This document shows, piece after piece, positions 13,236 through 28,043 of a stretch of 42,933 bases of DNA. The stretch is taken from the NCBI GenBank assembly GCA_043823965.1, contig JBDRTP010000313.1, forward strand, positions 1 through 42,933, read 5' to 3'. Position 1 is the first letter of the stretch, and each line of letters begins with the position of its first letter. A program made the translations under genes and the position numbers. The DNA is from Chloroflexota bacterium. Its GTDB lineage: Bacteria > Chloroflexota > Anaerolineae > Anaerolineales > Villigracilaceae. A model generated the notes under the pieces. It was not told the DNA's origin. It worked only from the letters and a program-made list of their open reading frames with translations, and made no database searches.

Positions 13236-14512
13236 ACATCCAACTTAAAAAAGCCTTGAGCGACCTCACCACCCACCCGGGCCGCACCGCCCTCGTGATT
13301 CTGGCCCTGGTCATCGGCCTGTGGGGAGTCGGGTCTATTCTGGTGTCGTATGCGGTGTTGAAAAGCGACCTGAACGAGAACTACACGCGCACGAATCCCG
13401 CCCATGTTGTCATGACCTCAAAAAACTTTGACCGGTTGGACCTGGCGGCGTTCAGAAATCGGCCGGGCATCGTCAGCGCCGAATTCCGCGCCCTCTCCTT
13501 CCAACGCATCGAAGTCTTTCCCGATCAATGGATTCCATTGTGGGTCTTTGGCGTGGAAGATTTCAACAACTTCAATCTGGCGCATATTTACAATGAGGAA
13601 GGCAATCCAGTTCCCGAACCGGGCACGATGTTGATTGAACGCGACGGGCAGAACGTCTCGGATTTGAAAGTCGGGACAGTGGCGCGGGTTCGCGTCGGCG
13701 GCCAAATTATTGAAGTGCCTATCACCGGCATTGCCTTTGATCCGGCTCAGGCCCCCGCCTCGCAGGACGCTTTCATCTATGCGTATGTGGACAAGGAAAC
13801 GTACACCGCCATCACCGGCGAGCCGGCCAACCAACGCTTGATTTTTCGTTTAGAGAATGTCACCACCAAACAAGACATCCAGACCATCGCCAATACGATT
13901 GTGGATGAGTTTGAGCAATTGGGCATCACCGTGGAGACGGTGAACATTCCCAAGCCCAATGAGCACCCGCACCAGTTTCAATTGAATACGTTGCTCGCTT
14001 TGCAGGGGAGCATCGGGGGCCTGGCCTTTCTCATGGGCGCGGTGCTGGTGTCGCAATTGATGAGCGCCATTCTCACCCAGCAAGTCCGGCAAATTGGCGT
14101 ACTTAAAGCCATTGGGGCCTCACGCTGGCAGACGCTCAAAATCTATTTGGCGATGGTGCTCATCTTTGGCGCGGTGTCGAGCACTATCGCCATCCCATTG
14201 GCGGTGATGTCGGGCTACGCCTTTGCCGAGTTTGTGGCGAGAACCATCAACTTTGAAGTGCTCACCACGACATTGCCGATCGCGGTGTATGTTTATCTCA
14301 TCGTCGCTGGCTTGCTGTTGCCCATCCTGGTGTCGCTCCTGGCCCTGCTGAAAGGGGTCAACGTATCCGTGCAGGCCGCGCTGTCCGATTACGGCATCCG
14401 GCCCGACCAGTCTGACGCGACGGCGGCCGCCCGACTGCCTTTGTCGAATAGCCTGATATTCTGGCGGTGCGAAATACCCTGCGCCGCCGAGGACGCCTGG
14501 CCGTCACCGTAG
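13232..14512 (+). CDS. FtsX-family ABC permease, first module (possibly the N-terminal half of a frameshifted two-module permease)
   Basis: TM1, a large extracytoplasmic domain, then an FtsX 3-TM bundle (VRQIGVLKAIGASRWQ). The tail after ...ALSDYG looks like a linker rather than a natural C-terminus. Confidence 0.75.
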   Translation: MNIQLKKALSDLTTHPGRTALVILALVIGLWGVGSILVSYAVLKSDLNENYTRTNPAHVVMTSKNFDRLDLAAFRNRPGIVSAEFRALSFQRIEVFPDQWIPLWVFGVEDFNNFNLAHIYNEEGNPVPEPGTMLIERDGQNVSDLKVGTVARVRVGGQIIEVPITGIAFDPAQAPASQDAFIYAYVDKETYTAITGEPANQRLIFRLENVTTKQDIQTIANTIVDEFEQLGITVETVNIPKPNEHPHQFQLNTLLALQGSIGGLAFLMGAVLVSQLMSAILTQQVRQIGVLKAIGASRWQTLKIYLAMVLIFGAVSSTIAIPLAVMSGYAFAEFVARTINFEVLTTTLPIAVYVYLIVAGLLLPILVSLLALLKGVNVSVQAALSDYGIRPDQSDATAAARLPLSNSLIFWRCEIPCAAEDAWPSP

Positions 14513-15597
14513 CCACGATGGCGCTCGGCGTGGCAATCTTCAGCACCGGGTTTAATGTCCGGGAAGCCCTCATAGTGCTTTTGGCAGAAAACAGAAACTC
14601 TATGAAGTATGATGTGCAGGTGGTGTTCAAGGACCAGATTCCCTTGGAGCAGGCCTTGGCGCCATTTAGCGCTGTGAGCAATATCAGTCGCGTTGAAGCG
14701 TGGAATGGTGGACGTGGTCGTCTTCAAACGGGAATAATCTCAACCACCAACGGGATCGGTGTGGTGGCCCTGCCCTACGACACTGATCTCGCCATCTGGG
14801 AGGTCATCGAGGGGCGCTGGTTGGAAGCGACGGATGAGACCGAAATCGTGATGAATCAAATCGCGGCCGAGGCCTTGGGTAATCCCGTGGTGGGCGAGCA
14901 TTACACAATTGACATCAAAGGGAAACTGGTGAACGCGAAATTGGTGGGCATTGTCAAGGAATTTGAAGTGGCCAAAATTTACATGGACAAAGGCCGCTAC
15001 GACGCGCTAGTGAACCCGGAGCATTTGGTTAACAGTTTGATGTTTGTGGCCCAAGACAAAGACTACAAGCAGATTATCGCCTTGAAAAAAGACATCGAAA
15101 ATGCGATTGCGCCGACCAATTTGAACATTCTCGCTGTTCTGTCGCAAGCCGAACGCGCGGAAATCCTTTTTAACCATCTCAACATCATCCTGACCCTGAT
15201 CGTTTTTCTATCGCTGTTGGTGCTGGTGGTCGGCGCGCTGGGCATGGCTTCCGCGACGGGCATCAACATCATGGAGAGAACCCGCGAGATTGGCGTGCTA
15301 CGCGCCATCGGCGCGACGCCCAAAATGATTTACGGCTTGTTCGTGGCCGAGGGCATGGTGGTGAGCGTTGTCAGCATTCTTGTGGGGCTGTTGCTGGCCT
15401 GGCCGCTCAGTATCGTCGCTTCAGCGTTCTTCGGAGATTTGATCCTGGGAAACGGAGTCCCGCTCGACTTTGCCTTCAGCTATCCTGGCTTTAGAATCAC
15501 ATTAACCGTTACCCTGATCTTTGGTTGGTTAGCCAGTCGAATCCCGGCGCGCAGGGCCATTACTGTCTCGACTCGGGAAGCGATTTCTTACGAATAA
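14467..15597 (+). CDS. FtsX-family ABC permease, second module
   Basis: RNTLRRRGRLAVTVATMALG is the canonical permease N-terminal motif. FtsX bundle REIGVLRAIGATPKM. The only in-frame start is a GTG just 15 nt (five sense codons) past an in-frame stop, and the motif extends upstream of that GTG. Confidence 0.7.
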   Translation: MRNTLRRRGRLAVTVATMALGVAIFSTGFNVREALIVLLAENRNSMKYDVQVVFKDQIPLEQALAPFSAVSNISRVEAWNGGRGRLQTGIISTTNGIGVVALPYDTDLAIWEVIEGRWLEATDETEIVMNQIAAEALGNPVVGEHYTIDIKGKLVNAKLVGIVKEFEVAKIYMDKGRYDALVNPEHLVNSLMFVAQDKDYKQIIALKKDIENAIAPTNLNILAVLSQAERAEILFNHLNIILTLIVFLSLLVLVVGALGMASATGINIMERTREIGVLRAIGATPKMIYGLFVAEGMVVSVVSILVGLLLAWPLSIVASAFFGDLILGNGVPLDFAFSYPGFRITLTVTLIFGWLASRIPARRAITVSTREAISYE

Positions 15598-15785
15598 TAG
15601 TTTCTGAGTTGGGCAAGTTTTATGATCATGTCATTTTTATGGGTGCGTCGCACCTGCTTCGACGGGAATCTCTCACCCTTTAGATTCTTCTGCATAATGA
15701 GCAGAGTCCACTCATGTGGGCGCCGTTGCCAACCATAATGTCCGCGGCAGGAATGGCGGGAGAGCCCCCTCCGCCCTAGCGGGCA

Positions 15786-15852
15786 CCTCCCCCAAATGGG
15801 ACAGAAAAACTTTTTATGTTAACCATGTGTAACATGTCCCATTTGGGGGAGG
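15786..15852. repeat. 18-bp-arm hairpin upstream of the DUF559 gene
   Basis: CCTCCCCCAAATGGGACA (15786-15803) faces TGTCCCATTTGGGGGAGG (15835-15852). The right arm recurs as a direct repeat at 16313-16330. Confidence 0.9.
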
Positions 15853-15916
15853 CGGGTGGGGGCAGGGTTTTGCAATAGACTCAGGGGAGTGATGATAAAC
15901 TCGGGGAGAGAAAATT

Positions 15917-16297
15917 ATGCCAGCGAAACGATCCAATCCCAACACTATGCGCCAAGCGGTGAAGCTGCGAAAAGTCCCTACACCTGCTGAGAAAAAACTG
16001 TGGTCATATTTACGCGGGGAAAAATTGAACGGGGTGAGTTTTAGACGTCAACACGCCATTGGGAATTTCATCCCTGATTTTGTCTCAATCAAGAGGAAAT
16101 TAATCATTGAACTTGACGGCAGCCAGCATTTGGAGCAAGCTGAATATGATGTTGAGCGAACCAAGTATTTTGAGTCACAGGGGTATAAGGTGATTCGCTT
16201 TTGGAATAATCAGGTGATGAACGATATTAACAGGGTCATTCGAGTTATCGAGTTTGCGTTGAATGATGAGCAAGCGCGATATGAAAATTTAGGTTGA
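15917..16297 (+). CDS. DUF559 endonuclease-domain protein (Vsr-like fold)
   Basis: PTPAEKKLWSYLRGEKLNGVSFRRQHAIGNFIPDFV...IIELDGSQH...KVIRFWNNQV is the DUF559 signature. Confidence 0.85.
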   Translation: MPAKRSNPNTMRQAVKLRKVPTPAEKKLWSYLRGEKLNGVSFRRQHAIGNFIPDFVSIKRKLIIELDGSQHLEQAEYDVERTKYFESQGYKVIRFWNNQVMNDINRVIRVIEFALNDEQARYENLG

Positions 16298-16333
16298 CAA
16301 GTTTAAGTCCACTGTCCCATTTGGGGGAGGAAG

Positions 16334-16580
16334 GGCAAACCTGACATGTCTCACCCGCGCCGATGTCAATCATAACGTCCGCGGGGATGTGGGTCACGAT
16401 TGATCAGTCCCTTGCGGAGACACCTTCGGCAGGTTTTTGGGGAGAGAGGCAAACCTGACATGTCTCACCCGCGCTGTTGTCAACCATAACGTCCGCGTGG
16501 ACGTGGGTCATGATTAGTCAGTCCCTTGCGGAGACACACTTCGACAAGCTCAGTGCAACGCCTTCGGCAGTTTTTTGGGG
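16334..16580 (+). repeat. Tandem duplication of a ~110-bp inter-cassette unit
   Basis: Copy 1 is 16334-16442 and copy 2 is 16448-16580; copy 2 carries a ~23-bp insert. Each begins GGCAAACCTGACATGTCTCACCCGCGC and ends CCTTCGGCAGGTTTTTGGGG, and the ends are imperfectly inverted. Confidence 0.85.
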
Positions 16581-16587
16581 TGGGTGT

Positions 16588-16650
16588 GAGGGGACTCGCG
16601 CCTGCTTTGATGGACATGTCTCACCCGTTGATTTGTCTCGTTTGGTGAGG
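16588..16650 (+). repeat. Inter-cassette repeat, A-box copy 1 plus stem
   Basis: GAGGGGACTCGCGCCTGCTTTGATGGACATGTCTCACCCGTTG (16588-16630), followed by the CTCACC/GGTGAG stem. Confidence 0.85.
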
Positions 16651-16682
16651 TGAATCTACCTGTCTGGTTCGCTGGCGAGTGG

Positions 16683-16690
16683 TGTATAAT
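16683..16690 (+). promoter_or_regulatory. Extended -10 box TGTATAAT for MNT/HepT
   Basis: TGTATAAT ends 6 nt before the ATG at 16697, which implies a leaderless or near-leaderless mRNA. Confidence 0.5.
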
Positions 16691-16696
16691 TCTCAC

Positions 16697-16996
16697 ATGC
16701 TCGTATCTAGCCGTGATGATGTAATTGCCATAATCAAAGCCAACCGACGGGCGCTAAAGCGTTATGGCGTCAAGTCGTTGGCATTGTTTGGGTCCGCGGC
16801 CAGGAATAGCCTGCGGAAACGCAGTGATATTGATGTTCTGGTGCAGTTCGACAAAGCAACCTGGGAAAATTACATCGGCTTGAAGTTCTACCTGCAAGAC
16901 CTGCTTGGGCGCGAAGTGGATTTGGTCACGCCCAAAGCGCTCAAGCCAGCCACGCGGCCATCCATCGAAAAAGACTTGTTCCATGTCGTCTCGTAA
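16697..16996 (+). CDS. MNT-type nucleotidyltransferase antitoxin
   Basis: The motif LFGSAARNSLRKRSDIDVLVQF (GS...DxD) and an overlap with the HepT gene. The ATG at 16697 is preferred because the track start at 16679 lies inside the -10 box. Confidence 0.8.
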   Translation: MLVSSRDDVIAIIKANRRALKRYGVKSLALFGSAARNSLRKRSDIDVLVQFDKATWENYIGLKFYLQDLLGREVDLVTPKALKPATRPSIEKDLFHVVS

Positions 16997-17324
16997 ACCC
17001 GATTTGTATCTACAGGATATTCTGCAAGCCTGCAATGATACTTTATATTTCACCCAGGCGATGGGCAAGGCAGATGACTTGCAGAATGACCGCCGCACAT
17101 TTCTGGCAGTTGTTCGCAGTCTTGAAGTCATTGGGGAAGCCGCGCGGCAAATGCCGAAAAGTTTCAAGGAAAAGCACCCTGAAATTCCCTGGCGCGAGGC
17201 CGCCAGCTTGCGTAACGTCATCGCGCACGAATATTTTGGATTGGATATCGACATCGTTTGGGATGTCATTCAAACTCAAATCCCTGTTTTGTCTGAAACG
17301 CTTAAGCGAATTCAGACTGACTAA
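16983..17324 (+). CDS. HepT-like (DUF86, HEPN) RNase toxin
   Basis: HEPN motif RNVIAHEY (Rx4H), a DUF86-like YLQDILQA N-terminus, and a 14-nt overlap with the MNT gene. Confidence 0.85.
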   Translation: MSSRKPDLYLQDILQACNDTLYFTQAMGKADDLQNDRRTFLAVVRSLEVIGEAARQMPKSFKEKHPEIPWREAASLRNVIAHEYFGLDIDIVWDVIQTQIPVLSETLKRIQTD

Positions 17325-17328
17325 ACAA

Positions 17329-17356
17329 ATCGGAGCCACGCGGCTCCGATTTTTTC
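17329..17356 (+). terminator. Intrinsic terminator after hepT
   Basis: ATCGGAGCC-acgc-GGCTCCGAT followed by TTTTT. Confidence 0.75.
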
Positions 17357-17623
17357 GAGGGGACTCGCGCCTGTTTTGACGGACATGTCTCACCCATTGG
17401 TCTGTCCCGTTTGAGGGGATGGGCAAACCTGCCGAAGGTGTCTCGTGCGGCACTTGCATGAAGGATGAAGGCGGAAGGATGAAGGATGAAAGCGTGCGCG
17501 GGTATGGCAAACCTGGTCTCATGCAGCTCTCGTCCGCCCGTGGCGCATGCAAGGACAAGTATCCGCGCAAGTCAAGGTTTCGTGGACGTGTACCCGAAGG
17601 GTGGACACCTTTGGCAGGTTTTT
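17357..17623 (+). repeat. Inter-cassette repeat, full-length mosaic copy (A-box, stem, B-box, tail)
   Basis: A-box 17357-17399. B-box GGCAAACCTGGTCTCATGCAGCTCTCGTCCGCCCGTGGCGCATGC at 17506-17550. The tail ...GGTTTCGTGGACGTGTACCCGAAGGGTGGAC...CAGGTTTTT matches 21394-21449. Confidence 0.85.
17460..17494. repeat. Five-unit heptamer repeat inside the inter-cassette element
   Basis: GAAGGAT GAAGGCG GAAGGAT GAAGGAT GAAAGCG. Confidence 0.9.
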
Positions 17624-17652
17624 GGATTGGGTTGATTTAGTCCACTGATTAG

Positions 17653-17660
17653 TCTATAAT
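17653..17660 (+). promoter_or_regulatory. Candidate -10 box (TCTATAAT) for phd/vapC
   Basis: TATAAT at 17655-17660, followed by GGAGGGAGG and the ATG at 17677. Confidence 0.5.
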
Positions 17661-17676
17661 GTGGAGGGAGGCTCGA

Positions 17677-17898
17677 ATGACCGTCTTCAACATCCACGAA
17701 GCGAAAACGCATTTCTCCAAACTGCTCGAACGCGTGATGCGCGGCGAGGAAGTTCTCATTGCCAGGGCGGGCAAGCCTGTGGCGCGCCTTTTGCCGTTCA
17801 CGATAGAGGATATTTCTCCGCGTGTCCCAGGGATTGACAAAGGGAAAGTGACGATCATGCCAGATTTCGATGCGCCACTGCCTGAGTTTGACCTATGA
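17677..17898 (+). CDS. Phd/YefM-family antitoxin
   Basis: MTVFNIHEAKTHFSKLLERVMRGEEVLIARAGKPVARLLP is a typical Phd/YefM N-terminus. A 4-nt overlap with vapC. Confidence 0.8.
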   Translation: MTVFNIHEAKTHFSKLLERVMRGEEVLIARAGKPVARLLPFTIEDISPRVPGIDKGKVTIMPDFDAPLPEFDL

Positions 17899-18281
17899 AA
17901 GTGTTGATTGATACGCACACTTTTCTCTGGTGGAACACGGAAGACGCGCAATTGTCGGCGCGCGCCAAAGAGATCATCGCCGATGGGCGCAATGAAGTTT
18001 TCCTTTCTGCCGCCAGCGCCTGGGAAATCGCGATCAAAACTGCCAAAGGTAAATTGGTTTTACCAGAGGATCCCGCTCAATATGTAGTAAACCGAATGGG
18101 TTTATATCGCTTTCAAGCTTTGCCTGTGCAGATCAACCATGCTTTGCATGTCTATGAACTGCCGCACCATCATGATGATCCGTTTGATAGGTTGTTGATT
18201 GCACAAAGTCAACTGGAAGGATTGCCGCTTATTACTGTTGATAGCGAAATTGAAAAATACGAAGTAGAGATTATCTGGTGA
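17895..18281 (+). CDS. vapC: VapC-family PIN-domain toxin
   Basis: LIDTHTFLWW...SAASAWEIAIK...HHDDPFDRLLIAQS is the PIN acidic-residue pattern. Confidence 0.85.
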   Translation: MKVLIDTHTFLWWNTEDAQLSARAKEIIADGRNEVFLSAASAWEIAIKTAKGKLVLPEDPAQYVVNRMGLYRFQALPVQINHALHVYELPHHHDDPFDRLLIAQSQLEGLPLITVDSEIEKYEVEIIW

Positions 18282-18285
18282 TAGG

Positions 18286-18323
18286 CCTGTGCTGTTGTTT
18301 TGACGGACATGTCTCACCCGCTG
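18286..18323 (+). repeat. Inter-cassette repeat, 5'-truncated A-box copy
   Basis: CCTGTGCTGTTGTTTTGACGGACATGTCTCACCCGCTG begins 5 nt after the vapC stop. Confidence 0.8.
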
Positions 18324-18349
18324 ACTTTTTCTGGCAAACACCCCCTCCA

Positions 18350-18383
18350 CCTTCACCCTTCGGGTACTTCGCGGCACCTCCCC
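18350..18383 (+). repeat. C-box repeat shared with 19204-19237
   Basis: CCTTCACCCTTCGGGTACTTCGCGGCACCTCCCC is identical at both sites. Confidence 0.9.
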
Positions 18384-18549
18384 TCGCGAAGCAGCCCGTA
18401 GGGGCAAATCCGAAATGAAAAGTATTTATGCCAACCAAACGTCAACTGTCGGATTTGGGGGAGGCGGGGCGCGTCTCCACTACAGCGCTTGGGTGGGCGC
18501 GGATTTGAGCAGGCCATGATTTCGCGGGGACATGTCAGGTTTTTCAAGG

Positions 18550-18557
18550 TGTATAAT
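18550..18557 (+). promoter_or_regulatory. Extended -10 box TGTATAAT for the RelE-type pair
   Basis: TGTATAAT is preceded by the repeat end CAGGTTTTT. AGGAG precedes the ATG at 18598. Confidence 0.5.
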
Positions 18558-18597
18558 TTGGGAGATAAATTCAGTAATTAAAAATAGGAGTAAAAAT

Positions 18598-18807
18598 ATG
18601 CTTACCAAAGCGCAAGCCACAGCCGATGTTTTCTGGGTTGCTTTTCGTGAGTTGCCGCGTGATGAACAGAAACTCGTTATCCAGCATTTAATTCGCAATG
18701 AAAATTTACGCCGTGACCTAATGGATTTGGCGGTAATTGAAGAACGCCGTAACGAGCCGCAACGCTCCTTGCGCGCTTACATCAAAGAAACTGCTGGAAA
18801 GAAGTAA
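18598..18807 (+). CDS. Putative antitoxin (unclassified) of a RelE-type toxin
   Basis: 69-aa ORF that begins after AGGAG. Its stop overlaps the toxin start (TAATG). Confidence 0.55.
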   Translation: MLTKAQATADVFWVAFRELPRDEQKLVIQHLIRNENLRRDLMDLAVIEERRNEPQRSLRAYIKETAGKK

Positions 18808-19061
18808 TGACATATCAAGTCATTATCAAAAAACCAGTCGAGAAAGAATTGGACTCGCTCTCTGCAAAATTGCGAGAGCGAATTTTTCAACGACTTCTTG
18901 CGCTTGAAGAAAATCCACGCCCACAGGGAGTAAAAAAGTTGCAGGGCGAAGAATCCTACCGATTGCGAATAGGGGATTATCGCGCATTGTATTCGATTGA
19001 TGACAAGAAAAAGGAAGTTCTAGTTTATGCAGTTGGTCATCGCAGGGAAGTATATCGTTGA
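18807..19061 (+). CDS. relE: RelE/StbE-family mRNA interferase toxin
   Basis: YQVIIKKPVEKELDSL...YRLRIGDYRALYSIDDKKKEVLVYAVGHRREVY is the RelE/ParE signature. Confidence 0.85.
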   Translation: MTYQVIIKKPVEKELDSLSAKLRERIFQRLLALEENPRPQGVKKLQGEESYRLRIGDYRALYSIDDKKKEVLVYAVGHRREVYR

Positions 19062-19066
19062 TCTTG

Positions 19067-19096
19067 ATCGGGACAGCAATGTCCCGATTTTATTTG
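19067..19096 (+). terminator. Intrinsic terminator after relE
   Basis: ATCGGGACA-gcaa-TGTCCCGAT followed by TTTATTTG. Confidence 0.7.
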
Positions 19097-19159
19097 AAAC
19101 AGGTGGAGCGCAATTGCTCACATATTGCGCATGTCCATTTGTGGCGCGTGCATGAGCAT

Positions 19160-19364
19160 GGCAAACTTGTTCTCATGCGGAACTTGTCCGCTTGCCCCCA
19201 TCGCCTTCACCCTTCGGGTACTTCGCGGCACCTCCCCCATTTTCGGCTTTCTCGAAAATGGGGGAGGCTGGGTGGGGCAAGGCGCGTGTCCGTTACGGCG
19301 ATTGCGTGGGCGCGGATTTGCGCAAGTCAAGGTTTCGCGGAGACACCTTCGGCAGGTTTTTGGG
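19160..19364 (+). repeat. Inter-cassette repeat, mosaic copy (B-like, C-box, hairpin, D-box/tail)
   Basis: GGCAAACTTGTTCTCATGCGG..., then the C-box at 19204-19237. A 13-bp perfect hairpin pairs CCTCCCCCATTTT (19231-19243) with AAAATGGGGGAGG (19255-19267). The tail is GCGCGGATTTGCGCAAGTCAAGGTTTCGCGGAGACACCTTCGGCAGGTTTTTGG. Confidence 0.8.
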
Positions 19365-19365
19365 A

Positions 19366-19373
19366 GGTATAAT
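19366..19373 (+). promoter_or_regulatory. Candidate -10 box (GGTATAAT) for the MazF-type pair
   Basis: TATAAT at 19368-19373. The leader TCTGGGCAAGGAGAATCCGCC precedes the ATG at 19394. Confidence 0.5.
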
Positions 19374-19393
19374 CTGGGCAAGGAGAATCCGCC

Positions 19394-19618
19394 ATGGCAC
19401 TCAGCGAAAAAATCCAGGAATACATCCAGAAACTTCCCCCGTCGTTTCAGGAAGAAGTACTGGACTTTCTAGAATATCTGCTCGTTAAAGCGGAACGCGA
19501 ATCGGCGCGGCGCGAAGAAAAAGAGTGGGCACGCCTGTCGCTTGAATCTGCCATGCGTGGGATGGAAGATGAACCTGATCTGTATACCATCGCTGACCTA
19601 AAGGTGAAGTACGAATGA
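19394..19618 (+). CDS. DUF2281-type antitoxin
   Basis: IQEYIQKLPPSFQEEVLDFLEYLL is the DUF2281 signature. A 4-nt overlap with the toxin gene. Confidence 0.65.
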   Translation: MALSEKIQEYIQKLPPSFQEEVLDFLEYLLVKAERESARREEKEWARLSLESAMRGMEDEPDLYTIADLKVKYE

Positions 19619-19959
19619 GACAGGCTGGGGATGTCGTTCTGACCCGTTTTTCCCTGGCAAATTTAGCCGAAGGAAAACTCCGCCCTGCGTTGTTGCTCGG
19701 CAGATTGTCTGGCGATTACGATGACTGGCTGATCTGCATGATCTCGTCACAGGCGCGCCATTATCAGCCTGACTTCGATGAACTCGTCAGCGAGAGTGAT
19801 TCTGACTTTGCGGATTGCGGTTTGAAAACAACCAACGTCATTCGGGTGGAGAGGCTTGCAGTTGTTGAAACCAGTATTCTGCTTGGTGATGTCGGTCATA
19901 TTTCTGCAGAACGGTTACAACGTATCAAGCGCCATCTTGCAGATTGGATTTTAGAGTAA
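19615..19959 (+). CDS. mazF: PemK/MazF-family toxin
   Basis: GDVVLTRF...KLRPALLLGR...WLICMISSQ...VIRVERLAVVE fits the MazF/PemK SH3-like fold pattern. Confidence 0.75.
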   Translation: MRQAGDVVLTRFSLANLAEGKLRPALLLGRLSGDYDDWLICMISSQARHYQPDFDELVSESDSDFADCGLKTTNVIRVERLAVVETSILLGDVGHISAERLQRIKRHLADWILE

Positions 19960-19963
19960 TCAG

Positions 19964-19988
19964 CGGAGCCACATGGCCCCGTTTTTTT
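19964..19988 (+). terminator. Probable intrinsic terminator after mazF
   Basis: CGGAGCC-acat-GGCCCCG (one mismatch) followed by TTTTTTT. Confidence 0.5.
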
Positions 19989-20055
19989 ATGCGGTGAATT
20001 CTCATGTCCAAAATTGACACCCTCGTGCAAGGTTTCCTTGGCCCCTCACCCCTGG

Positions 20056-20080
20056 CCCCTCTCCCAAAAAGGGAGAGGGG
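20056..20080. repeat. Perfect 10-bp hairpin CCCCTCTCCC-aaaaa-GGGAGAGGGG
   Basis: Seen directly; the right arm runs into the A-box. Confidence 0.9.
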
Positions 20081-20215
20081 ACTCGCGCCTGTTTTGACGG
20101 ACATGTCTCACCCGCTGGTGTCCCGCTTGGTGGGGTGAGCAAACCTGACAGGTCTCATGCGGCTCTCGTCCGCCCGTGGCGCTTGCGCGGACATGGATTC
20201 GCGCTGGGGAAGGTT
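20075..20215 (+). repeat. Inter-cassette repeat copy (A-box, stem, B-box)
   Basis: A-box 20075-20117. Stem CTCACCC (20107-20113) / GGGTGAG (20133-20139). B-box 20138-20186. Confidence 0.85.
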
Positions 20216-20261
20216 TTGTGGACCAGGAATGATGTGTGGCGCATTCGCGCTTGGTTTGCAG

Positions 20262-20269
20262 TGTATAAT
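20262..20269 (+). promoter_or_regulatory. Extended -10 box TGTATAAT for UPF0175/DUF3368
   Basis: Followed by the leader CTAAGCAGGAGAATCCATT and the ATG at 20289. Confidence 0.5.
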
Positions 20270-20288
20270 CTAAGCAGGAGAATCCATT

Positions 20289-20540
20289 ATGGTCACAAGA
20301 CATATTTCAATTGAGATTCCCGAATCCATTTTGCTCGCCGAAAAGACGGATGAAGTTGCTTTTGCTCGCGAGTTGCGCGTCCTTGCGGCGGTGAAACTGT
20401 ACGAGATGGGACGGTTGTCATCAGGCCGCGCCGCTGAACTGGCGGGTATGCCGCGCGTGGAGTTCCTTGTCAATTTGGGGCGATACAAAGTCTTTCCACT
20501 TCAAGCCGAATTAAACGATCTGGAAAGCCATGCCGCCTGA
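20289..20540 (+). CDS. UPF0175-family antitoxin-like protein
   Basis: LRVLAAVKLYEMGRLSSGRAAELAGMPRVEFLVNLGRY is the UPF0175 signature. Confidence 0.75.
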   Translation: MVTRHISIEIPESILLAEKTDEVAFARELRVLAAVKLYEMGRLSSGRAAELAGMPRVEFLVNLGRYKVFPLQAELNDLESHAA

Positions 20541-21021
20541 AGCCATCAGCAACACATCGCCATTGTTGTATCTTTATCGTATTGACGGACTCAATTGGCT
20601 TTCGAAACTGTTTGATTCCATTTGGGTTCCACAAGCCGTTGCAGATGAATTCAAAGAGGGGCGGCGCAGAGGCTATGATGTACCTGACCTTGCCAAATAC
20701 AACTGGTTGAAAATCGTTAATCCCAAAGCGATGCCGTCCGAATGGCTGGCTCTCGATTTGGGCGCGGGAGAACTGTCCGCGATGGCGCTTGCATTGGAAA
20801 ATCTCACTCGAATTATCTTGCTCGATGATTTGCTGGCGCGTCGTACTGCACAGGCGGCAGGTCTCACGGTTTGGGGAACGTTGAGGCTTTTGCTTGAAGC
20901 CAAATCGAACGGCCTGATCGATTCTGTCGGGATGTATATCAATCGTTTGAGTGAATCGGGTATGTGGATTTCAGACGAAGTCCGTCAACGGATTTTAGTG
21001 TTGGCAGGTGAACAACCATGA
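20530..21021 (+). CDS. DUF3368 (PIN-like) protein, putative toxin
   Basis: ISNTSPLLYLYRIDGLNWLSKLF...VPQAV..E matches the DUF3368 N-terminus. It overlaps the UPF0175 gene by 11 nt. Confidence 0.75.
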   Translation: MPPEAISNTSPLLYLYRIDGLNWLSKLFDSIWVPQAVADEFKEGRRRGYDVPDLAKYNWLKIVNPKAMPSEWLALDLGAGELSAMALALENLTRIILLDDLLARRTAQAAGLTVWGTLRLLLEAKSNGLIDSVGMYINRLSESGMWISDEVRQRILVLAGEQP

Positions 21022-21236
21022 CCATCCATGTTCCGAGTGAAAGACAAGTTATACAAGAAGCGGCTCAAGTGTTGATCCAGCACATGAGTCCCGCCAAAGC
21101 AACGCGCTTCTGGGCCTCCTGGCAGGTCGGCGAAGGTGATTATCCTGCCATTCGCGAACAACTGTTTGCGAAAGAGACGGTGGCGTCTCTTTATAAGCAA
21201 ATCGAAAAATATCAGAAAAAGAAGACGAGAAAGTGA
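21018..21236 (+). CDS. Small hypothetical protein, third gene of the UPF0175/DUF3368 cassette
   Basis: 72-aa ORF with a 4-nt ATGA overlap on the DUF3368 stop and a terminator directly downstream. I recognise no family. Confidence 0.5.
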   Translation: MTIHVPSERQVIQEAAQVLIQHMSPAKATRFWASWQVGEGDYPAIREQLFAKETVASLYKQIEKYQKKKTRK

Positions 21237-21242
21237 TAAAAG

Positions 21243-21270
21243 TCGGAGCCGTGTGGCTCCGATTTTCTTT
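21243..21270 (+). terminator. Intrinsic terminator
   Basis: TCGGAGCC-gtgt-GGCTCCGA followed by TTTTCTTT. The same hairpin type occurs at 17329. Confidence 0.75.
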
Positions 21271-21271
21271 C

Positions 21272-21449
21272 GAGGGGACTCGCGCCTGTTGTAACGACAT
21301 GTCTCACCCGCTGATTTGTCCCGTTTGAGGGAGTGGGCAAACCTGGTCTTATGCGGCTCTCGTCCGCGTGTGTCGCGTGCGCGGACATGGCTCCGCGCGG
21401 GGGAAGGTTTCGTGAACGTGTACCCAAAGGGTGGACCTGTCAGTTTTTT
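21272..21449 (+). repeat. Inter-cassette repeat, full-length copy
   Basis: A-box 21272-21313, stem CCCGCT/AGTGGG, B-box 21336-21380, and a tail to CAGTTTTTT at about 21449. Confidence 0.85.
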
Positions 21450-21455
21450 ATGCGG

Positions 21456-21463
21456 TGTATAAT
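21456..21463 (+). promoter_or_regulatory. Extended -10 box TGTATAAT for the terminal cassette
   Basis: Followed by CAGGAGAACC and the ATG at 21489. Confidence 0.5.
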
Positions 21464-21488
21464 ATGAGCAAGAGACAGGAGAACCAAC

Positions 21489-22097
21489 ATGACTCGAACC
21501 TTTACCGCTGTGATTCACAAAGAAGATGATTGGTATGTGGCGGATTGTCCCGAAGTTGGAACCGTCAGCCAGGGAAAAACCGTATCCACCTTTGCAGCCA
21601 TTCCTTTTCTCATCATCCTCGCCTGCACACTGACGACCATATCCCCTGTGGATACTTCCCAGCCGCCGGTCGGCGCGACGGAGACCGTGGAAGTCCCATC
21701 TCTGCCGCGCTGGATGGGATACGAGCAGACTCTGTCCGCTGTTTTGCTGGCTGGTACCGGCGAGGAGGGCTTCTGCGAGTGGGATATCCTCGGCCATACG
21801 GATACCGACGTCTACGTTTGGGCGTTGTGTCAGGTGCGCAGTTCTGGCGATGGCGCCGCCAGCATGTCTCCGGCGGTCATCTATCTGAGCGCGGACGGGC
21901 GCATTGACCGCGTTGCCATGCCGCGCGAATCGTCCTATCTCGACGACATCAAATCCCTCTTCCCGTCTGACTTGCAAGCCTGCGCTATGGACAATGCCTG
22001 TTTCGATGGCCCGGCTGCCATGCAGCACATCGCCCTGCGCCGCGCCGACCCGTCCATCCCGCCCGCGATTATAGAGCAGGGTGTGGAATTGCCATAA
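21489..22097 (+). CDS. Chimeric ORF: HicB-like N-terminus (~31 aa) fused to a putative lipoprotein/secreted protein body
   Basis: MTRTFTAVIHKEDDWYVADCPEVGTVSQGKT matches the start of HicB/UPF0150 antitoxins. The ORF then switches to a signal/lipobox-like AAIPFLIILACTL and an unrelated 160-aa domain. Confidence 0.6.
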   Translation: MTRTFTAVIHKEDDWYVADCPEVGTVSQGKTVSTFAAIPFLIILACTLTTISPVDTSQPPVGATETVEVPSLPRWMGYEQTLSAVLLAGTGEEGFCEWDILGHTDTDVYVWALCQVRSSGDGAASMSPAVIYLSADGRIDRVAMPRESSYLDDIKSLFPSDLQACAMDNACFDGPAAMQHIALRRADPSIPPAIIEQGVELP

Positions 22098-22109: not shown

Positions 22110-22523
22110 ATGCCGAAAATTAACAAAATCAATCACGTTGCCTTCGTCGTGGACGACATGCGGAAATCGCTCTCGTTCTGGCGCGACGCCCTCGGCCTGC
22201 AAATGACCGAACTGCGCGATAATCCTGCCGAGCAGGCGCAGATAGCCTTCCTGCCGATTGCGGGCAGTGAAATCGAACTCGTTCGTCCGACGAGCGAGGA
22301 TTCCGGTTTGGCGAAATATCTGGCCAGGCGCGGCCCCGGGATGCACCACATCTGCTTCGAAACGGACGACATCCAAGGCATGCTGGCGCAGTTGCAAGCA
22401 AGGGGTGTGCGTCTCATCAACGAGACGCCGCGCACCGGCGGAGATGGGCGCAAATATGCCTTCATCCATCCCGAGTCCACGGGCGGGGTGTTGGTGGAAC
22501 TCTACCAGTTCGCTGTGGTTTAA
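22110..22523 (+). CDS. mce: Methylmalonyl-CoA epimerase (VOC superfamily)
   Basis: INHVAFVVDDM...LGL...IAFL..G.SEIELV.P......KYL...GPGMHHICFETDDI...GVRLI...P..G.....AFIHP...GGVLVEL is the typical epimerase pattern. Confidence 0.85.
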   Translation: MPKINKINHVAFVVDDMRKSLSFWRDALGLQMTELRDNPAEQAQIAFLPIAGSEIELVRPTSEDSGLAKYLARRGPGMHHICFETDDIQGMLAQLQARGVRLINETPRTGGDGRKYAFIHPESTGGVLVELYQFAVV

Positions 22524-22530
22524 TAGAGAT

Positions 22531-23934
22531 ATGTCGAAGAGAGTTGACCTTTCATCTTGCGGCCTTCCGCCTTCCGCCTTGCTTGTTGTCGGCGTCTCCG
22601 GCGGCGCGGATAGTCTTTGTCTGCTTCACGTGCTCCACTCAGCGGGTTATTCGCTCATCGCGGCGCATTTCAATCACAAACTGCGCCCTGAAGCCGGCGC
22701 GGACGCCGAAGCCGTGCGCAGCGTTGCAAAAAAGATGGACGTGCCATTCGTGACCGAATCTGCGGATGTGAAGGCGTACGCCGCACAGGAAGGTTTATCC
22801 GTCGAAGAAGCCGCCCGCACGCTGCGTTATCGTTTTCTATTTGCCGAGGCTCGCAAACAAAAAGCGCAGGCTGTGGCCGTCGGCCATACCGCCGACGACC
22901 AGGTGGAGACAGTATTGATGCACTTCATTCGCGGCGCGGGGTTGGCGGGTTTGAAAGGCATGACTCCGCACACGATTTTACCGGTCTTTGAGGCTGAAAT
23001 CCCGCTTGTGCGCCCGTTGCTTTCACTCTGGCGTGCAGATACCGAAACCTATTGCCGCGCGCACGGACTGGACTTTATCACCGACGCCTCCAACGCCGAC
23101 CAGACCTACTTCCGCAACCGCCTGCGCCACAGCCTGATCCCTGAACTCGAAAAATATAATCCCCGCTTCAAAGAAGCCCTGGTGCGCACGGCGGGGGCCT
23201 TGCAAGGCGATCATGCCGCGTTGCAGGAAATGCTGGATCGGGCCTGGAAGGATGTCTTCGCCGAGGTGGGAGATGGCTGGTTCGCCTTCGAGAAGTCCGG
23301 ACTGGCAAAACTCTCCCCCGGTTTACGGCGGGATCTCATCCGCCGGGCGGCTGAAGCACTGCGGCCCGACAGCCGGGATTTTGGGTTCGAGGCGCTGGAG
23401 CGGGCGGCGGCGTTTGCCGAGACTCCCGCCGGGAAACAGATTGATTTTATGAATGGATTGTACCTTTTTGCCGAAGGCGGAAGAATCTACATCGCCGCTT
23501 ACGAAGCTGACTTGCCCTCTGCTCAATTTCCGCAGGTGACTGCCTCCTGCCTGCTGCCGACTGGCGAATGTCTTGACTTGGGCAACGGCTGGATACTGTC
23601 CACTGAACACTGTCCACTGAACACTGCTGACTGGTCACTGAACACCGATCACTGGTCAGCGTGGCTGGATGCTGATACAACGGGGAGCAGGCTCCAGGTC
23701 CGGCCGCGCCGCGAGGCTGATCGCTTTCAACCGCTGGGCATGGACGGGCGGTCAGTCAAATTATCTGATTTCTTCGTCAACGTCAAACTGCCCAAGCGGG
23801 CGCGGGCAAAATGGCCGCTGGTCTGCGTGGGCGATGAAATTGCCTGGCTGGCGGGGTTTCGCATCGCGCACCTGTTCCGCATCACCGAAAAGACGAAGCG
23901 AGTTGTTCATCTTTCCCTGGTGAATAAAAAGTAA
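22531..23934 (+). CDS. tilS: tRNA(Ile)-lysidine synthetase TilS
   Basis: PP-loop VGVSGGADS, HFNHKLR, GHTADDQVETVLM, and a C-terminal RPRREADRFQPLGM..SVKLSDFFVN.KLP. The ATG at 22531 follows the mce stop; the track start at 22258 overlaps mce. Confidence 0.9.
   Translation: MSKRVDLSSCGLPPSALLVVGVSGGADSLCLLHVLHSAGYSLIAAHFNHKLRPEAGADAEAVRSVAKKMDVPFVTESADVKAYAAQEGLSVEEAARTLRYRFLFAEARKQKAQAVAVGHTADDQVETVLMHFIRGAGLAGLKGMTPHTILPVFEAEIPLVRPLLSLWRADTETYCRAHGLDFITDASNADQTYFRNRLRHSLIPELEKYNPRFKEALVRTAGALQGDHAALQEMLDRAWKDVFAEVGDGWFAFEKSGLAKLSPGLRRDLIRRAAEALRPDSRDFGFEALERAAAFAETPAGKQIDFMNGLYLFAEGGRIYIAAYEADLPSAQFPQVTASCLLPTGECLDLGNGWILSTEHCPLNTADWSLNTDHWSAWLDADTTGSRLQVRPRREADRFQPLGMDGRSVKLSDFFVNVKLPKRARAKWPLVCVGDEIAWLAGFRIAHLFRITEKTKRVVHLSLVNKK
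23596..23658. repeat. Nine-unit heptamer array embedded in frame in tilS
   Basis: CTGTCCA CTGAACA CTGTCCA CTGAACA CTGCTGA CTGGTCA CTGAACA CCGATCA CTGGTCA (63 nt), encoding LSTEHCPLNTADWSLNTDHWS. Confidence 0.9.
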
Positions 23935-27999: not shown

Positions 28000-28043
28000 G
28001 GTTGGTGAGCGTGACGAATCGCCCTGGCTCTGGAAGACCAGGA

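Follow-up and report, generated by a model that had tools for sequence, protein, structure and literature searches.

The window analysed here, a 42.9-kb stretch of an Anaerolineales (Chloroflexota) chromosome, carries at 15.6-21.6 kb a row of co-oriented toxin-antitoxin (TA) cassettes, with a single conserved, one-directional linker between them. The anatomy of this array can be read in detail, its linkers keep one orientation and are array-specific in the DNA examined, it occupies a conserved hotspot, its cassettes turn over among relatives, and the junctions cluster at a short linker segment, the A-core. On balance we lean towards the explanation that, in a long-lived and strain-variable TA array at a fixed chromosomal hotspot, linkers recombine with linkers, the A-core being the preferred place of exchange, and that random deletions add to the change.

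Results

The cassettes and their expression signals

The array is bounded by the stop codon of the FtsX permease gene (15597) and by the ORF at 21489-22097 (Table 1); in a Chloroflexi MAG (locus L019; relatives' loci carry L numbers throughout) homology to the window stops at 15615 (BLAST). A sequence-only reading had described co-oriented modules between the permease and a chimeric ORF, and Pfam bears these out as DUF559, MNT/HepT, Phd/VapC, x/ParE, DUF2281/MazF and UPF0175/DUF3368 with a 72-aa ORF, all on the plus strand. The 69-aa ORF in front of ParE, a putative antitoxin, matched no Pfam family. The final ORF is indeed chimeric, since L042 and L043 join a different or shorter N-terminus to the same lipoprotein signal peptide. 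Its own N-terminus of about 31 codons had no match in Pfam, NCBIfam or PDB, and it may be HicB-like. The right arm of the E hairpin recurs at 16312-16330, so that the DUF559 gene is flanked by a 19-bp direct repeat.

Table 1. Features of the array and its flanks, in window coordinates.
Feature	Position	Strand	Details and evidence
FtsX/MacB-type ABC permease, left flank	14467-15597	+	Pfam, BLAST
Degenerate A-box (GACGGGAATCTCTCACCC variant), left edge of array	15640-15713	+	nhmmer E 5e-4; same variant in L065
E hairpin	15786-15852		19-bp perfect arms, z -5.9; folding
DUF559 (Vsr-like endonuclease fold), one-gene module	15917-16297	+	Pfam 1e-38, NCBIfam
Tandem pair of 114-nt M-elements and B-box remnant	16334-16579	+	MITE-like, ends GGCAAACCTG...CAGGTTTTTGG
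Linker 1, A-box	16588-16667	+	core GACATGTCTCACCC at 16613
MNT/HepT cassette	16683-17324	+	TGTATAAT 16683-16690; NTP_transf_2 (MNT) 16697-16996; HepT 16983-17324; Pfam and L053 gene calls
Linker 2	17327-17626	+	T hairpin 17327-17354; A-box 17357-17433; M-element(s) 17420-17626
Phd/VapC cassette	17632-18281	+	PhdYeFM 17677-17898; PIN (VapC) 17895-18281; Pfam
Linker 3, A-core	18285-18336	+	28-mer 18296-18323 identical to 20090-20117
M-element	18333-18547	+	nested D14 and E hairpin (18341-18468; z -2.7)
x/ParE cassette	18550-19095	+	TGTATAAT at 18550; 69-aa ORF 18598-18807; ParE/RelE 18807-19061; hairpin 19066-19089
Linker 4, M-element	19146-19364	+	nested E hairpin (19231-19267, z -4.6); intact A-core absent
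DUF2281/MazF cassette	19366-19987	+	GGTATAAT at 19366; DUF2281 19394-19618; PemK/MazF 19615-19959; T hairpin 19964-19987
Remnant 's'	19988-20081	+	decayed promoter; ATG at 20004; ~12 conserved codons (MSKIDTLVQ); generic hairpin CCCCTCTCCC-AAAAA-GGGAGAGGGG
Linker 5	20075-20255	+	A-box 20075-20152; M-element 20139-20255
UPF0175/DUF3368/72-aa cassette	20262-21266	+	TGTATAAT at 20262; UPF0175 20289-20540; DUF3368 20530-21021; 72-aa ORF 21018-21236; T hairpin 21238-21266
Linker 6	21272-21463	+	A-box 21272-21346; M-element 21332-21450; TGTATAAT at 21456
Chimeric ORF, right end of array	21489-22097	+	truncated first gene of a cassette (~31 codons) joined to the signal peptide of a lipoprotein-like gene
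Glyoxalase/VOC and TilS, conserved right flank	22110-23934	+	22110-22523 and 22531-23934; Pfam, comparison with relatives
Xer-like tyrosine-recombinase homologue	24042-24971	-	catalytic R, H, H, Y missing

The motif GTATAAT occurs ten times in the window against 1.6 expected, and five copies (16684, 18551, 19367, 20263, 21457) stand directly 5' of array cassettes, four of them within TGTATAAT. The MNT gene starts about 7 nt past its -10 box and is possibly leaderless. The Phd promoter, TCTATAAT, has a TTGATT -35 element (TTGATT-17-TATAAT at 17632-17660). Terminator-like hairpins follow HepT, ParE, MazF and the 72-aa ORF. The repeated unit architecture proposed earlier thus stands for most cassettes in its -10 boxes and for four in its terminators, but DUF559 has no GTATAAT-type box and no terminator-like hairpin lies behind VapC or DUF559. 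On our reading each cassette is an autonomous expression unit: an extended -10 promoter and a Shine-Dalgarno (SD) sequence precede two genes coupled in translation, and in many cases an intrinsic terminator follows.

A composite linker specific to the array

The "mosaic repeats" between the cassettes are copies of one composite linker of 250-400 nt, made up of a T hairpin, an A-box, a MITE-like M-element and a promoter with SD. All four parts are homologous between unrelated cassettes, and the homology reaches the stop and start codons. The A-box is 50-75 nt long with the core GACATGTCTCACCC. That the repeats are real was confirmed, as they lie far above chance: four matches to the core against 0.00 expected, and four to the A-left motif against 0.12. 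The M-element(s) of linker 2 have inverted terminal repeats of 18-20 nt that are 94% complementary.

Inside the window, A-box/A-left repeats are confined to 15.6-21.5 kb. An A-box profile (nhmmer), run over 614 kb that include about 50 kb of distinct non-array DNA of the clade and no complete genome of its lineage, found significant matches only in TA arrays at this locus, and the array-specificity of the A-box applies within that DNA. In every one of about 16 independent copies the A-box has the orientation of the cassettes, and the M copies are likewise all co-oriented. A public metagenome scan for the A-core, which evidently misses short contigs (the core-bearing L046 was not among its matches), gave ten matches; five are real and all lie in TA arrays, and the other five are chance matches to the bare 19-mer.

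These data bear on the idea that the linkers are a generic, genome-wide family of REP/BIME or MITE type that has piled up between the TA genes of an otherwise static array. Linkers are mosaics of small units that end in inverted repeats and carry nested insertions, as in BIMEs and MITEs, and some of their sub-parts, the CCCCTCTCCC hairpin and the M-element, are generic: the hairpin is widespread and found also in cyanobacterial plasmids and another Anaerolineae genome, and L059 has one M-element in a non-TA context, beside a truncated aldehyde-dehydrogenase gene at the same hotspot. However, 37 kb of non-array window DNA hold no copy of A-box or M-element, nor does the other non-array DNA of the relatives except for that L059 copy; all copies share one orientation, the real metagenome matches are all in TA arrays, and the array is not static. 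Neither an evenly spread REP family nor an invariant array was thus found. We regard this explanation as very improbable, and for the A-box as largely refuted.

The A-box and T of the window share 84-90% identity with those of L063, compared with 58-66% at fourfold sites of TilS and glyoxalase, and an alignment of 14 A-box copies has 21 invariant columns. Judged by these identities, conservation of the A-box far exceeds what neutral change would leave. Its sequence is kept, with no compensatory changes pointing to structure. This would suit linkers that are mainly regulatory or insulating (terminator, protein-binding A-box, spacer, promoter) and are kept alike by selection and gene conversion, the strain differences being incidental deletions and horizontal replacements as in any variable island. 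The linker does span exactly the distance from stop to start codon and includes an extended -10 promoter as well as a canonical terminator, and many of the rearrangements seen here are simple deletions. Yet the A-box lies at a variable distance, 55-270 nt, 5' of the promoters, the RelB/ParE operon that stands alone at 10.5 kb lacks a linker although its promoter is similar, and it would go unexplained why junctions gather at the A-core and why inter-core units are lost exactly, as described below. We therefore consider a mainly regulatory role improbable.

Cassette turnover at a fixed hotspot

The hotspot lies upstream of the lipoprotein/glyoxalase-tilS genes and is constant across relatives with TilS identities of 76-100%. 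Downstream synteny is identical in all relatives compared, and cassette content and order vary. The array of L061 reads HEPN/MNT, Phd/VapC, DUF2281/MazF and HicB'-lipoprotein, without the ParE and UPF0175 cassettes; that of L063 Phd/VapC, 's', HEPN/MNT, DUF2281, RHH/MazF and lipoprotein; that of L054 x/MazF and Phd/VapC. The Phd/VapC block is conserved in L054 and L063, with its left edge at 17628-17630. L065 has a cassette set different from that of the window, L013/L044, L045 and L042 lack the window's ParE and MazF cassettes (18324-20089), L012 and L042 carry other MazF cassettes 5' of MNT, and no TA array occupies the locus in L059. The earlier reading had proposed to look in close relatives for gain or loss of cassettes at the repeat boundaries, and this is what the relatives show (L013/L044, L045 and L042; also L061, L054, L063 and L065). 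Since sets and orders differ among strains at one spot, the array behaves like an integron array, without integron machinery.

Other changes are of a different kind. Deletions within genes occur often (L042 has them in HepT and DUF3368; further cases are HicB', 's' and the lipoprotein remnant in L054). At fourfold sites, window and L061 are 94% identical in TilS, 92% in VapC and 96% in MazF, but 80% in Phd and 61% in DUF2281; against L054 the values are 90.5% for TilS and 62% for VapC. From these identities, the low values of Phd, DUF2281 and (against L054) VapC mark allele-replacement patches.

Junctions and the mode of joining

Among the relatives five different neighbours follow VapC on its right, each of them joined at the A-core; this sharpness is in part imposed, as no homology other than the core is available there. 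The deletion of 18324-20089 is joined within the 28-nt identical A-core in three independent assemblies (JGI, ENA, Logan), and the ParE+MazF unit lost in L013, L045 and L042 is the exact stretch between consecutive A-cores. Ends of homology blocks between arrays cluster from -16 to +21 of the core start. Blocks with a common downstream and differing upstream cassettes begin at -16, -10 or -4, those with a common upstream cassette end at +14, +17 or +21, and the segment common to all is thus the core itself. Further block ends lie off the core, at +39 to +44, +63, -55, -115 to -123 and inside coding sequence (19409). In two half-site junctions, the core with the lipoprotein 3' end in L054 and the 's' remnant with A-right in L063/L009, one half of the A-core abuts unrelated DNA near the centre of the imperfect A-box dyad.

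Some of these junctions invite another reading, a dedicated non-integron site-specific cassette system. The A-box would then be an att-like site, an imperfect dyad of about 41 nt (TTTTGACGGACA - TGTCTCACCCGYTGRTT - TGTCCCGTTTGA, arms picked by eye), which a recombinase from elsewhere in the genome, possibly assisted by the inactive Xer-like neighbour, would break and reseal close to the middle, and any unit with an A-core on each side would move in and out in the manner of an integron cassette. This would account for block limits that leave only the core in common, for the exact inter-core loss of ParE+MazF with linker 4, which has no intact core, inside it, for the half-sites near the dyad centre, and for a conserved, array-specific and 100% co-oriented A-box. 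Against it, no active recombinase candidate was found in the 43-kb window or in the relatives' loci. The Xer-like gene, the sole tyrosine-recombinase homologue in the window, lacks the catalytic residues and adjoins tilS in all relatives, whether the array is present or not; its product is probably not the cassette recombinase. In addition, several junctions lie off the core, no phage or viral copy of the site was found, and the dyad arms are short and imperfect. We hold such a system to be possible, and clearly less probable than linker-to-linker recombination.

We infer that joining is done by host general recombination (RecA-type or short-homology) and not by a dedicated enzyme, because block ends also lie off the core, genes have internal deletions, alleles have been replaced in patches and the locus has no active recombinase. 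Directly repeated linkers would offer portable homology. Exchange between them, mostly inside the A-core of 14-28 nt, would delete, add, replace or reorder cassettes, and could also patch in cassettes or alleles from diverged relatives. Ordinary illegitimate deletions would erode the array as well, and addictive TA pairs would slow its loss and in this way stabilise it. Some observations fit general recombination less well: an identity of 28 nt is close to the minimum that RecA-dependent exchange needs, the half-site junctions look more like site-specific breakage, and passive homology requires neither strong A-box conservation nor an absolute orientation bias.

The integron question

The array had been likened to a chromosomal integron cassette array or CALIN. 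One could take it for a true integron remnant with attC sites so divergent that the eye misses them. Co-oriented, small, TA-rich cassettes with a repeated element between them and strain differences do recall one. The sequence-only reading had itself seen no IntI and no canonical attC, rightly so: the Xer-like gene scores 25 bits on the integron-integrase model against a cut-off of 265, the window holds no signal of IntI or an intI pseudogene and no RYYYAAC...GTTRRRY pair, and attC-like folding is absent (A-box regions at z -0.7 to -2.5, M-elements at z +0.2 to +0.6), with no long imperfect palindromes in the linkers. Most cassettes also have their own promoter and four a terminator, and the repeat measures 250-400 nt against 57-141 nt for attC. 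As an identity, integron or CALIN is rejected; we find an integron remnant hardly credible. The further suggestion of a cassette system different from integrons held in part. The array is cassette-like and turns over at its repeats, but these are composite linkers and not discrete attC-like sites, and some breakpoints are off the core.

Comparison with known systems

Sedentary chromosomal integrons and CALINs (Vibrio superintegron, VCR attC; Cury et al. 2016, PMC4889954) share with the array co-oriented small TA-rich cassettes, a near-constant repeat abutting the ORFs, a fixed chromosomal position in the clade, variable content and order among close relatives, and junctions at the repeat. Unlike them, the array has no IntI, attI, R''/R' core motifs or attC-type folded palindrome, its repeat is a composite that holds a terminator and the next promoter, whereas integron cassettes are mostly promoterless, and site-specific joining is here the less probable reading. 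The rAID-1 arrays of Bacteroidales (Ross et al., bioRxiv 10.1101/471110) carry orphan immunity genes instead of TA pairs and are headed by a presumably active recombinase. The Xer-like gene here lies 2 kb off and on the opposite strand; its catalytic residues are missing, and it is still there where the array is absent. The phylum differs and the repeats are unrelated in sequence. The pdif (dif) modules of Acinetobacter plasmids (PMC6449649, PMC13141974) are likewise small, often TA pairs, and bounded by short recombination sites, and they move between replicons with no recombinase encoded by the element. However, pdif are 28-bp XerC/XerD sites of alternating orientation on plasmids, and the A-core is unrelated in sequence, directly oriented and chromosomal. 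Like BIMEs/REP mosaics and MITEs, the linkers form intergenic mosaics whose short units have inverted termini and occur nested and in tandem; those families are genome-wide and in both orientations, whereas the linkers are unidirectional and at one locus in the DNA examined. TAS "islands" (Makarova, Wolf & Koonin 2009, PMC2701414) also gather mutually unrelated type II TA pairs in a single part of the chromosome, and the explanations proposed were that a region takes up such genes preferentially and/or that cassettes with several TA pairs are transferred. There the evidence is statistical clustering alone; to this the present array adds a linker architecture, a hotspot kept across species and mapped junctions.

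Results

The ORF listing and the Pfam/NCBIfam scans bore out the genes that the sequence-only reading had named along the array, with the exception of the HicB label: this identity was sought for the truncated first gene of about 31 codons at the right end (called HicB' here), and no confirmation was obtained. The scores of MNT/HepT, Phd/PIN, x/ParE, DUF2281/PemK and UPF0175/DUF3368 exceed the Pfam cut-offs, and the genes within the pairs overlap by 4-14 nt or share 1 nt in a TAATG junction. By family and gene adjacency these five pairs are predicted type II toxin-antitoxin (TA) modules. The array fits the definition of a TAS island, an excess of close TA pairs of different classes, with five different pairs within 4.6 kb (16.7-21.2 kb) versus one other pair in the remaining 37 kb.

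Coordinates of features in the window and in related sequences (L-handles denote other sequences compared with the window)
Feature	Position	Strand	Remark
RelB-like/ParE operon	10505-11057		isolated
Mutase 3' end, two copies	10357-10471, 11058-11172
Heptanucleotide repeats	7511-7542, 23595-23658, 36109-36160
19-bp repeat, two copies	15834-15852, 16312-16330		E hairpin right arm (region 15786-16330)
DUF559	15917-16297	+	Pfam/NCBIfam, ORF listing
MNT/HepT	16697-16996 / 16983-17324	+	Pfam/NCBIfam, ORF listing
Phd/VapC-PIN	17677-17898 / 17895-18281	+	Pfam/NCBIfam, ORF listing
28-mer, two copies	18296-18323, 20090-20117
69-aa ORF without family / ParE/RelE	18598-18807 / 18807-19061	+	Pfam/NCBIfam, ORF listing
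DUF2281/MazF	19394-19618 / 19615-19959	+	Pfam/NCBIfam, ORF listing
Short palindromic hairpin	20043-20081; L055:3086-3123
UPF0175/DUF3368 and 72-aa ORF	20289-21236	+	Pfam/NCBIfam, ORF listing
Lipoprotein-like ORF	21489-22097	+	first ~31 codons truncated-antitoxin-like, fused to lipoprotein-type signal peptide
Lipoprotein-like gene in relatives	L042:2176-2853; L043:1327-1800
Xer-like tyrosine-recombinase homologue	24042-24971	-	adjoins tilS
Xer-like orthologues	L059:11461-12378; L061:6146-7036; L063:9455-10411; L065:2386-3303
Two LytR_cpsA_psr genes	25049-28050

Housekeeping genes flank the array, with a TetR/ABC transporter operon on the left and a glyoxalase-family gene, tilS, the Xer-like gene, LytR and others on the right. 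The G+C content of the array (47-52%) is lower than that of the surroundings (55-63%), and the names of homologues point to an Anaerolineae/Anaerolineales host. A direct repeat of 19 bp with no mismatch, CTGTCCCATTTGGGGGAGG, stands on either side of the DUF559 gene. Its sequence is that of the E hairpin's right arm, so that the gene looks as though it was placed within or next to this hairpin.

Elsewhere in the window, the RelB-like/ParE operon, with a GTATAAT at 10481, starts directly past the stop codon of a methylmalonyl-CoA mutase gene. The mutase 3' end is duplicated (115 nt, 89% identical) with the second copy 3' of the operon, so that this TA operon is bracketed by a direct repeat of the end of its target gene; its region has no A/M linker. 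The two neighbouring LytR_cpsA_psr genes have blocks of 240-300 nt in common at 85-92% identity, which points to a recent tandem duplication, and the gene is single-copy in the gene tables of L059, L061 and L063. At least two of the three sites with heptanucleotide tandem repeats (AGTGATC / CACTGAA; periods 7, 14 and 21) lie by coordinates inside coding regions (a P-type ATPase ORF and tilS).

Comparing the intergenic regions in pairs, we found that the mosaic repeat described from sequence alone is real as a repeat and resolves into one composite architecture with losses and nestings. Its parts are an intrinsic-terminator hairpin T (TCGGAGCC-NNNN-GGCTCCGA-T-run), which begins 0-6 nt past the stop codon, an A-box of 50-75 nt with the invariant core GACATGTCTCACCC (A-core) and a conserved right part GYTGRTTTGTCCCGTTTGAKGGGGTG, and a MITE-like M-element of 110-210 nt with the ends GGGCAAACCTGCCGAAGGTGTCTC ... 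GAGACACCTTCGGCAGGTTTTTGG. Linker 1 has two 114-nt M-elements in tandem, and in linkers 3 and 4 the element carries a strong nested hairpin, E. The A-box motifs occur in the window in four copies each versus 0.00 and 0.12 expected, and all repeat families of the array region stay within 15.6-21.5 kb of the 42.9-kb window. The cassette plan proposed earlier, a -10 box followed by overlapping genes and a terminator, holds: (T)GTATAAT stands directly 5' of the SD in five cassettes (10 GTATAAT in the window versus 1.6 expected), Phd having a -35/-10 pair instead, and intrinsic-terminator hairpins lie directly 3' of four cassettes. Promoter, leader and SD are homologous up to the ATG among the unrelated DUF2281, UPF0175 and HicB' cassettes.

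The strong folds are the T and E hairpins, and the A and M regions fold no better than shuffled sequence. A CACCC/GGGTG hairpin in the A-box is present in most copies, yet it has zero compensatory changes and hence offers no evidence for structure. Small conserved peptides in the linkers were discarded, since in our own reading of the ORF translations the frames vary among copies, which argues that the linkers are non-coding; a protein-database search with A-box-translated peptides, for spurious ORFs over repeats elsewhere, gave no match. Linker sub-parts can be generic. The hairpin CCCCTCTCCC-AAAAA-GGGAGAGGGG, flanked by CCCTCACCCC, has 95-97% identity to two Pseudanabaena plasmids, recurs in L055, another Anaerolineae genome, and is apparently a short palindromic repeat of wide distribution.

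Relatives were found by a metagenome scan for the A-core, in a collection that leaves out short contigs, and by way of VapC and TilS homologues; the exact A-core pattern has no match in the GTDB representative genomes. Near-identical contigs (>99%) show the same arrangement as the window. The loci tabulated here all have the downstream synteny glyoxalase-tilS-Xer-like-LytR in common. The alignment with relatives proposed in the sequence-only reading made clear that cassette content varies at repeat boundaries.

Content of related loci upstream of the common synteny (TilS, identity)
Locus	TilS	Arrangement
L013/L044 (JGI), L045 (ENA), L042 (Logan)		VapC cassette directly on UPF0175 cassette; window 18324-20089 (ParE and MazF) missing
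L046		MazF-to-UPF0175 junction of window type
L012, L042		two different MazF-type cassettes before MNT cassette, where the window has DUF559
L061	92% aa	[HEPN/MNT][Phd/VapC][DUF2281/MazF][HicB'-lipoprotein]
L063, with L009 and L016	76% aa	[Phd/VapC]['s'][HEPN/MNT][DUF2281][RHH/MazF][intact lipoprotein]; 's', remnant
L054	94% nt	[x/MazF][Phd/VapC], then A-core directly on last 17 codons of lipoprotein gene
L065		PIN-like gene (by eye), A-box variant, short M, truncated CoA-binding gene
L059/L060	91% aa	no TA array; CoA-binding gene, gene fragments, GIY-YIG-like gene (by eye), YaaC, MmeI-type RM

The lipoprotein-like gene at the right end lacks its own start, and its N-terminal fusion partner differs by strain; the window has a HicB'-like partner, L042 has DUF3368, and L043 has a shorter stub. 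The centre of the gene is strongly diverged from L042, with no blastn match across roughly 21.6-22.0 kb of the window, and from 22017 into the glyoxalase gene the two sequences are 97.8% identical. L059/L060 carry a single M-element beside an apparent truncated aldehyde-dehydrogenase gene (by eye). In L059:7500-9010, which also contains the GIY-YIG-like gene, YaaC and the MmeI-type RM gene, the M-element abuts the apparent, truncated aldehyde-dehydrogenase N-terminus (by eye), further repeats occur, and two ORF translations have the stretch 'RWSSRA.RCT.LVEVCSSQPV' in common. The L059 site is a general junkyard/defence hotspot. Synteny via the ABC permease gave a sole relative, L019, with only the TetR+ABC operon in common; the homology ends 18 nt past the permease stop, and this comparison is uninformative on any empty site.

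The junction in L013/L044, L045 and L042 lies in the 28-mer TGTTTTGACGGACATGTCTCACCCGCTG, which is identical at its two window positions. The unit missing in these L013-type strains is exactly the interval between two consecutive intact cores, and linker 4, which lies within it, has no intact core. VapC has five different right-hand neighbours, and all five junctions fall at window 18295-18327, the A-core. In a pairwise comparison of all arrays, each end of a shared block was placed by its distance from the closest core start. Blocks with a common downstream cassette and differing upstream ones begin at -16, -10 or -4, blocks with a common upstream cassette end at +14, +17 or +21, and where both partners have canonical linkers the homology reaches +39 to +44 or +63. 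Other block ends lie at -55 and -115 to -123, and one lies 15 nt into the DUF2281 coding sequence (19409). The A-box contains an imperfect dyad, seen by eye (ACGGACA...TGTCCCGT), near whose centre half an A-box is joined to unrelated DNA in L054 and in the 's' remnant of L063/L009. Ordinary deletions are represented by the HepT and DUF3368 truncations of L042, HicB', 's', the lipoprotein remnant of L054, and the truncated CoA-binding gene and apparent aldehyde-dehydrogenase fragment of L065 and L059.

REP/BIME or MITE families have many copies genome-wide, which are intergenic and stand in both orientations. An nhmmer profile of the A-box over 614 kb gave significant matches solely inside arrays at this locus, with none in L059, L055, L019 or non-array DNA, and the roughly 16 independent copies (window, L061, L063, L054, L065) are all oriented with the cassettes. 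The M profile over the same 614 kb finds the arrays and, at the same hotspot of L059, a single M, all co-oriented; five extra matches in a metagenome 19-mer scan show no similarity in their flanks and are due to chance. That A-box and M-element belong to a generic REP/MITE family is very improbable, given their single orientation and, but for the one M in L059, their limitation to arrays within the 614 kb. An evenly spread REP family beside an invariant array, which the sequence-only reading had named as the pattern that would speak against it, is thus not what the 614 kb hold.

Divergence was measured as identity at fourfold-degenerate sites. Between the window and L063 it is 66% (TilS) and 58% (glyoxalase) in the flanks and 76% (Phd), 63% (VapC) and 70% (DUF2281) in the cassettes. 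This similarity to the flanks gives no support to a recent horizontal spread of whole cassettes with linkers between the two lineages, and it suggests that the cassettes, and so the array, are about as old as the lineage split. The non-coding A-box and T segments are 84-90% identical between the same two loci and the A-box has 21 invariant columns over 14 copies, which points to selection and/or concerted evolution as what preserves the linker, and above all the A-box. Against L061 (TilS 94%; VapC 92%, MazF 96%, Phd 80%, DUF2281 61%) and L054 (TilS 90.5%; VapC 62%), the divergence of some cassette genes greatly exceeds that of the flanks. These genes are patches swapped for alleles of diverged donors, the mark left by homologous recombination with imported DNA.

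A complete integron has an IntI, a tyrosine recombinase with an IntI-specific insertion, adjoining the array. Integrons and CALINs have at least two attC sites (R'' RYYYAAC ... R' GTTRRRY, 57-141 nt, an imperfect palindrome with extrahelical bases), and most of their cassettes lack a promoter, a common Pc driving expression. Our attC test consisted of motif and folding: RYYYAAC-N(33-153)-GTTRRRY pairs number zero on either strand of the whole window, and the linker segments form no long hairpins better than shuffles. Rfam gave no match at gathering and E-value thresholds. The sole tyrosine-recombinase homologue in the window reaches 25.3 bits on TIGR02249 integrase_gron versus a cut-off of 265, and no further recombinase was found among the window ORFs of at least 150 aa. 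Moreover, the array cassettes mostly have their own promoters, and four have terminators. The array lacks every testable defining feature of an integron or CALIN, and a cryptic integron is hardly conceivable. The earlier observation that IntI and canonical attC are absent is therefore correct, and of the interpretation drawn from it the cassette-like array stands, with content varying at the repeats, and the integron/CALIN part falls. A phage origin was dismissed (no phage match; viral contig scans for both A-box halves were empty), as was a plasmid origin, plasmid matches being limited to Phd and the generic CCCCTCTCCC hairpin.

In the Xer-like protein Lys replaces the first catalytic Arg, and both His and the nucleophilic Tyr are missing. 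Five orthologues, with 88-98% identity across relatives whose TilS is at 76-92%, have all four residues (R, H, H and Y) substituted in the same way, and one of them is from L059, a genome with no array at the locus. Two housekeeping genes lie between the gene and the array, and its orientation is convergent. The protein was rejected as the 'missing integrase', since with these residues substituted it is not the catalyst; it is conserved, predicted to be catalytically dead, and not an IntI. It looks like a strongly constrained recombinase-like, putative DNA-binding protein and, under a site-specific cassette system as considered in the Discussion, might serve as an accessory factor binding the A-box site.

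Discussion

We propose a linker-delimited TA cassette array in which each cassette would be an autonomous transcription unit. The co-oriented linkers would be where recombination deletes, inserts, replaces and reorders cassettes, with the A-core as preferred crossover point, and the addictive cargo would slow the loss of the array. As the engine we give a guarded preference to host general or short-homology recombination, because a recombinase is absent from the locus, breakpoints also lie elsewhere in the linker, allele patches occur and many deletions are illegitimate. A dedicated site-specific system working at the A-core is a tentative alternative and rather unlikely; in its favour, units are bounded by cores, half-site junctions exist, and the A-box is strongly conserved and strictly oriented. 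In a more specific and slightly more doubtful form, the A-box would be the recombination site of an undescribed, IntI-independent Anaerolineales cassette system, in which a recombinase encoded elsewhere would excise and insert GACATGTCTCACCC-bounded units. The unit between two GACATGTCTCACCC cores would then consist of A-right, M-element, promoter, TA genes, terminator and A-left. The linkers provide terminators and promoters, and cassette content changes at them; that they are purely regulatory or insulating is improbable.

TA operons are very mobile and tend to cluster in 'islands', and their movement and clustering are, to our knowledge, largely unexplained outside integrons. The locus offers a concrete testable architecture, a directional conserved linker giving terminator, promoter and a short hyper-conserved core, at a chromosomal hotspot that is fixed across species at about 60-66% synonymous-site identity and whose natural variants have their junctions at the core. 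Should the core be a dedicated recombination site, the locus would represent a gene-capture platform of a new kind, in a phylum that has been little studied, and with an IntI-independent site a second, independently evolved 'integron-like' one, for self-expressed TA/defence cassettes. If it is not, directly repeated linkers and addictive cargo would build and keep an integron-like array by host recombination only. Linker arrays also account for metagenome assembly breaks in such regions.

In our literature search, neither this linker family nor arrays of this kind in Chloroflexota turned up. Modules of the pdif type are bounded by 28-bp XerC-6 nt-XerD sites in inverse orientation. The A-cores, in contrast, are all in direct orientation, and in our own reading the A-box sequences contain no 11-6-11 dif-like dyad. 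The cargo of pdif modules is analogous, and site type, site orientation and replicon differ (PMC6449649, PMC13141974). In the way it works the array resembles the sedentary integrons of chromosomes and the CALINs (Cury et al. 2016, PMC4889954), but it lacks all of their testable defining features. The closest non-IntI analogue is the rAID-1 array of Bacteroidales, which has repetitive sequence between its genes and a XerD-family gene that is conserved (bioRxiv 10.1101/471110). A presumably active XerD-family recombinase heads rAID-1. In the array described here repeated intergenic motifs are present, and a conserved Xer-family gene lies nearby, two genes off in convergent orientation; its protein lacks the catalytic residues, and the gene also occurs in L059, where the array is missing. 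For TAS "islands" Makarova et al. suggested preferential incorporation in one region or transfer of multi-TA cassettes (PMC2701414), and the array described here is a concrete instance of such an island.
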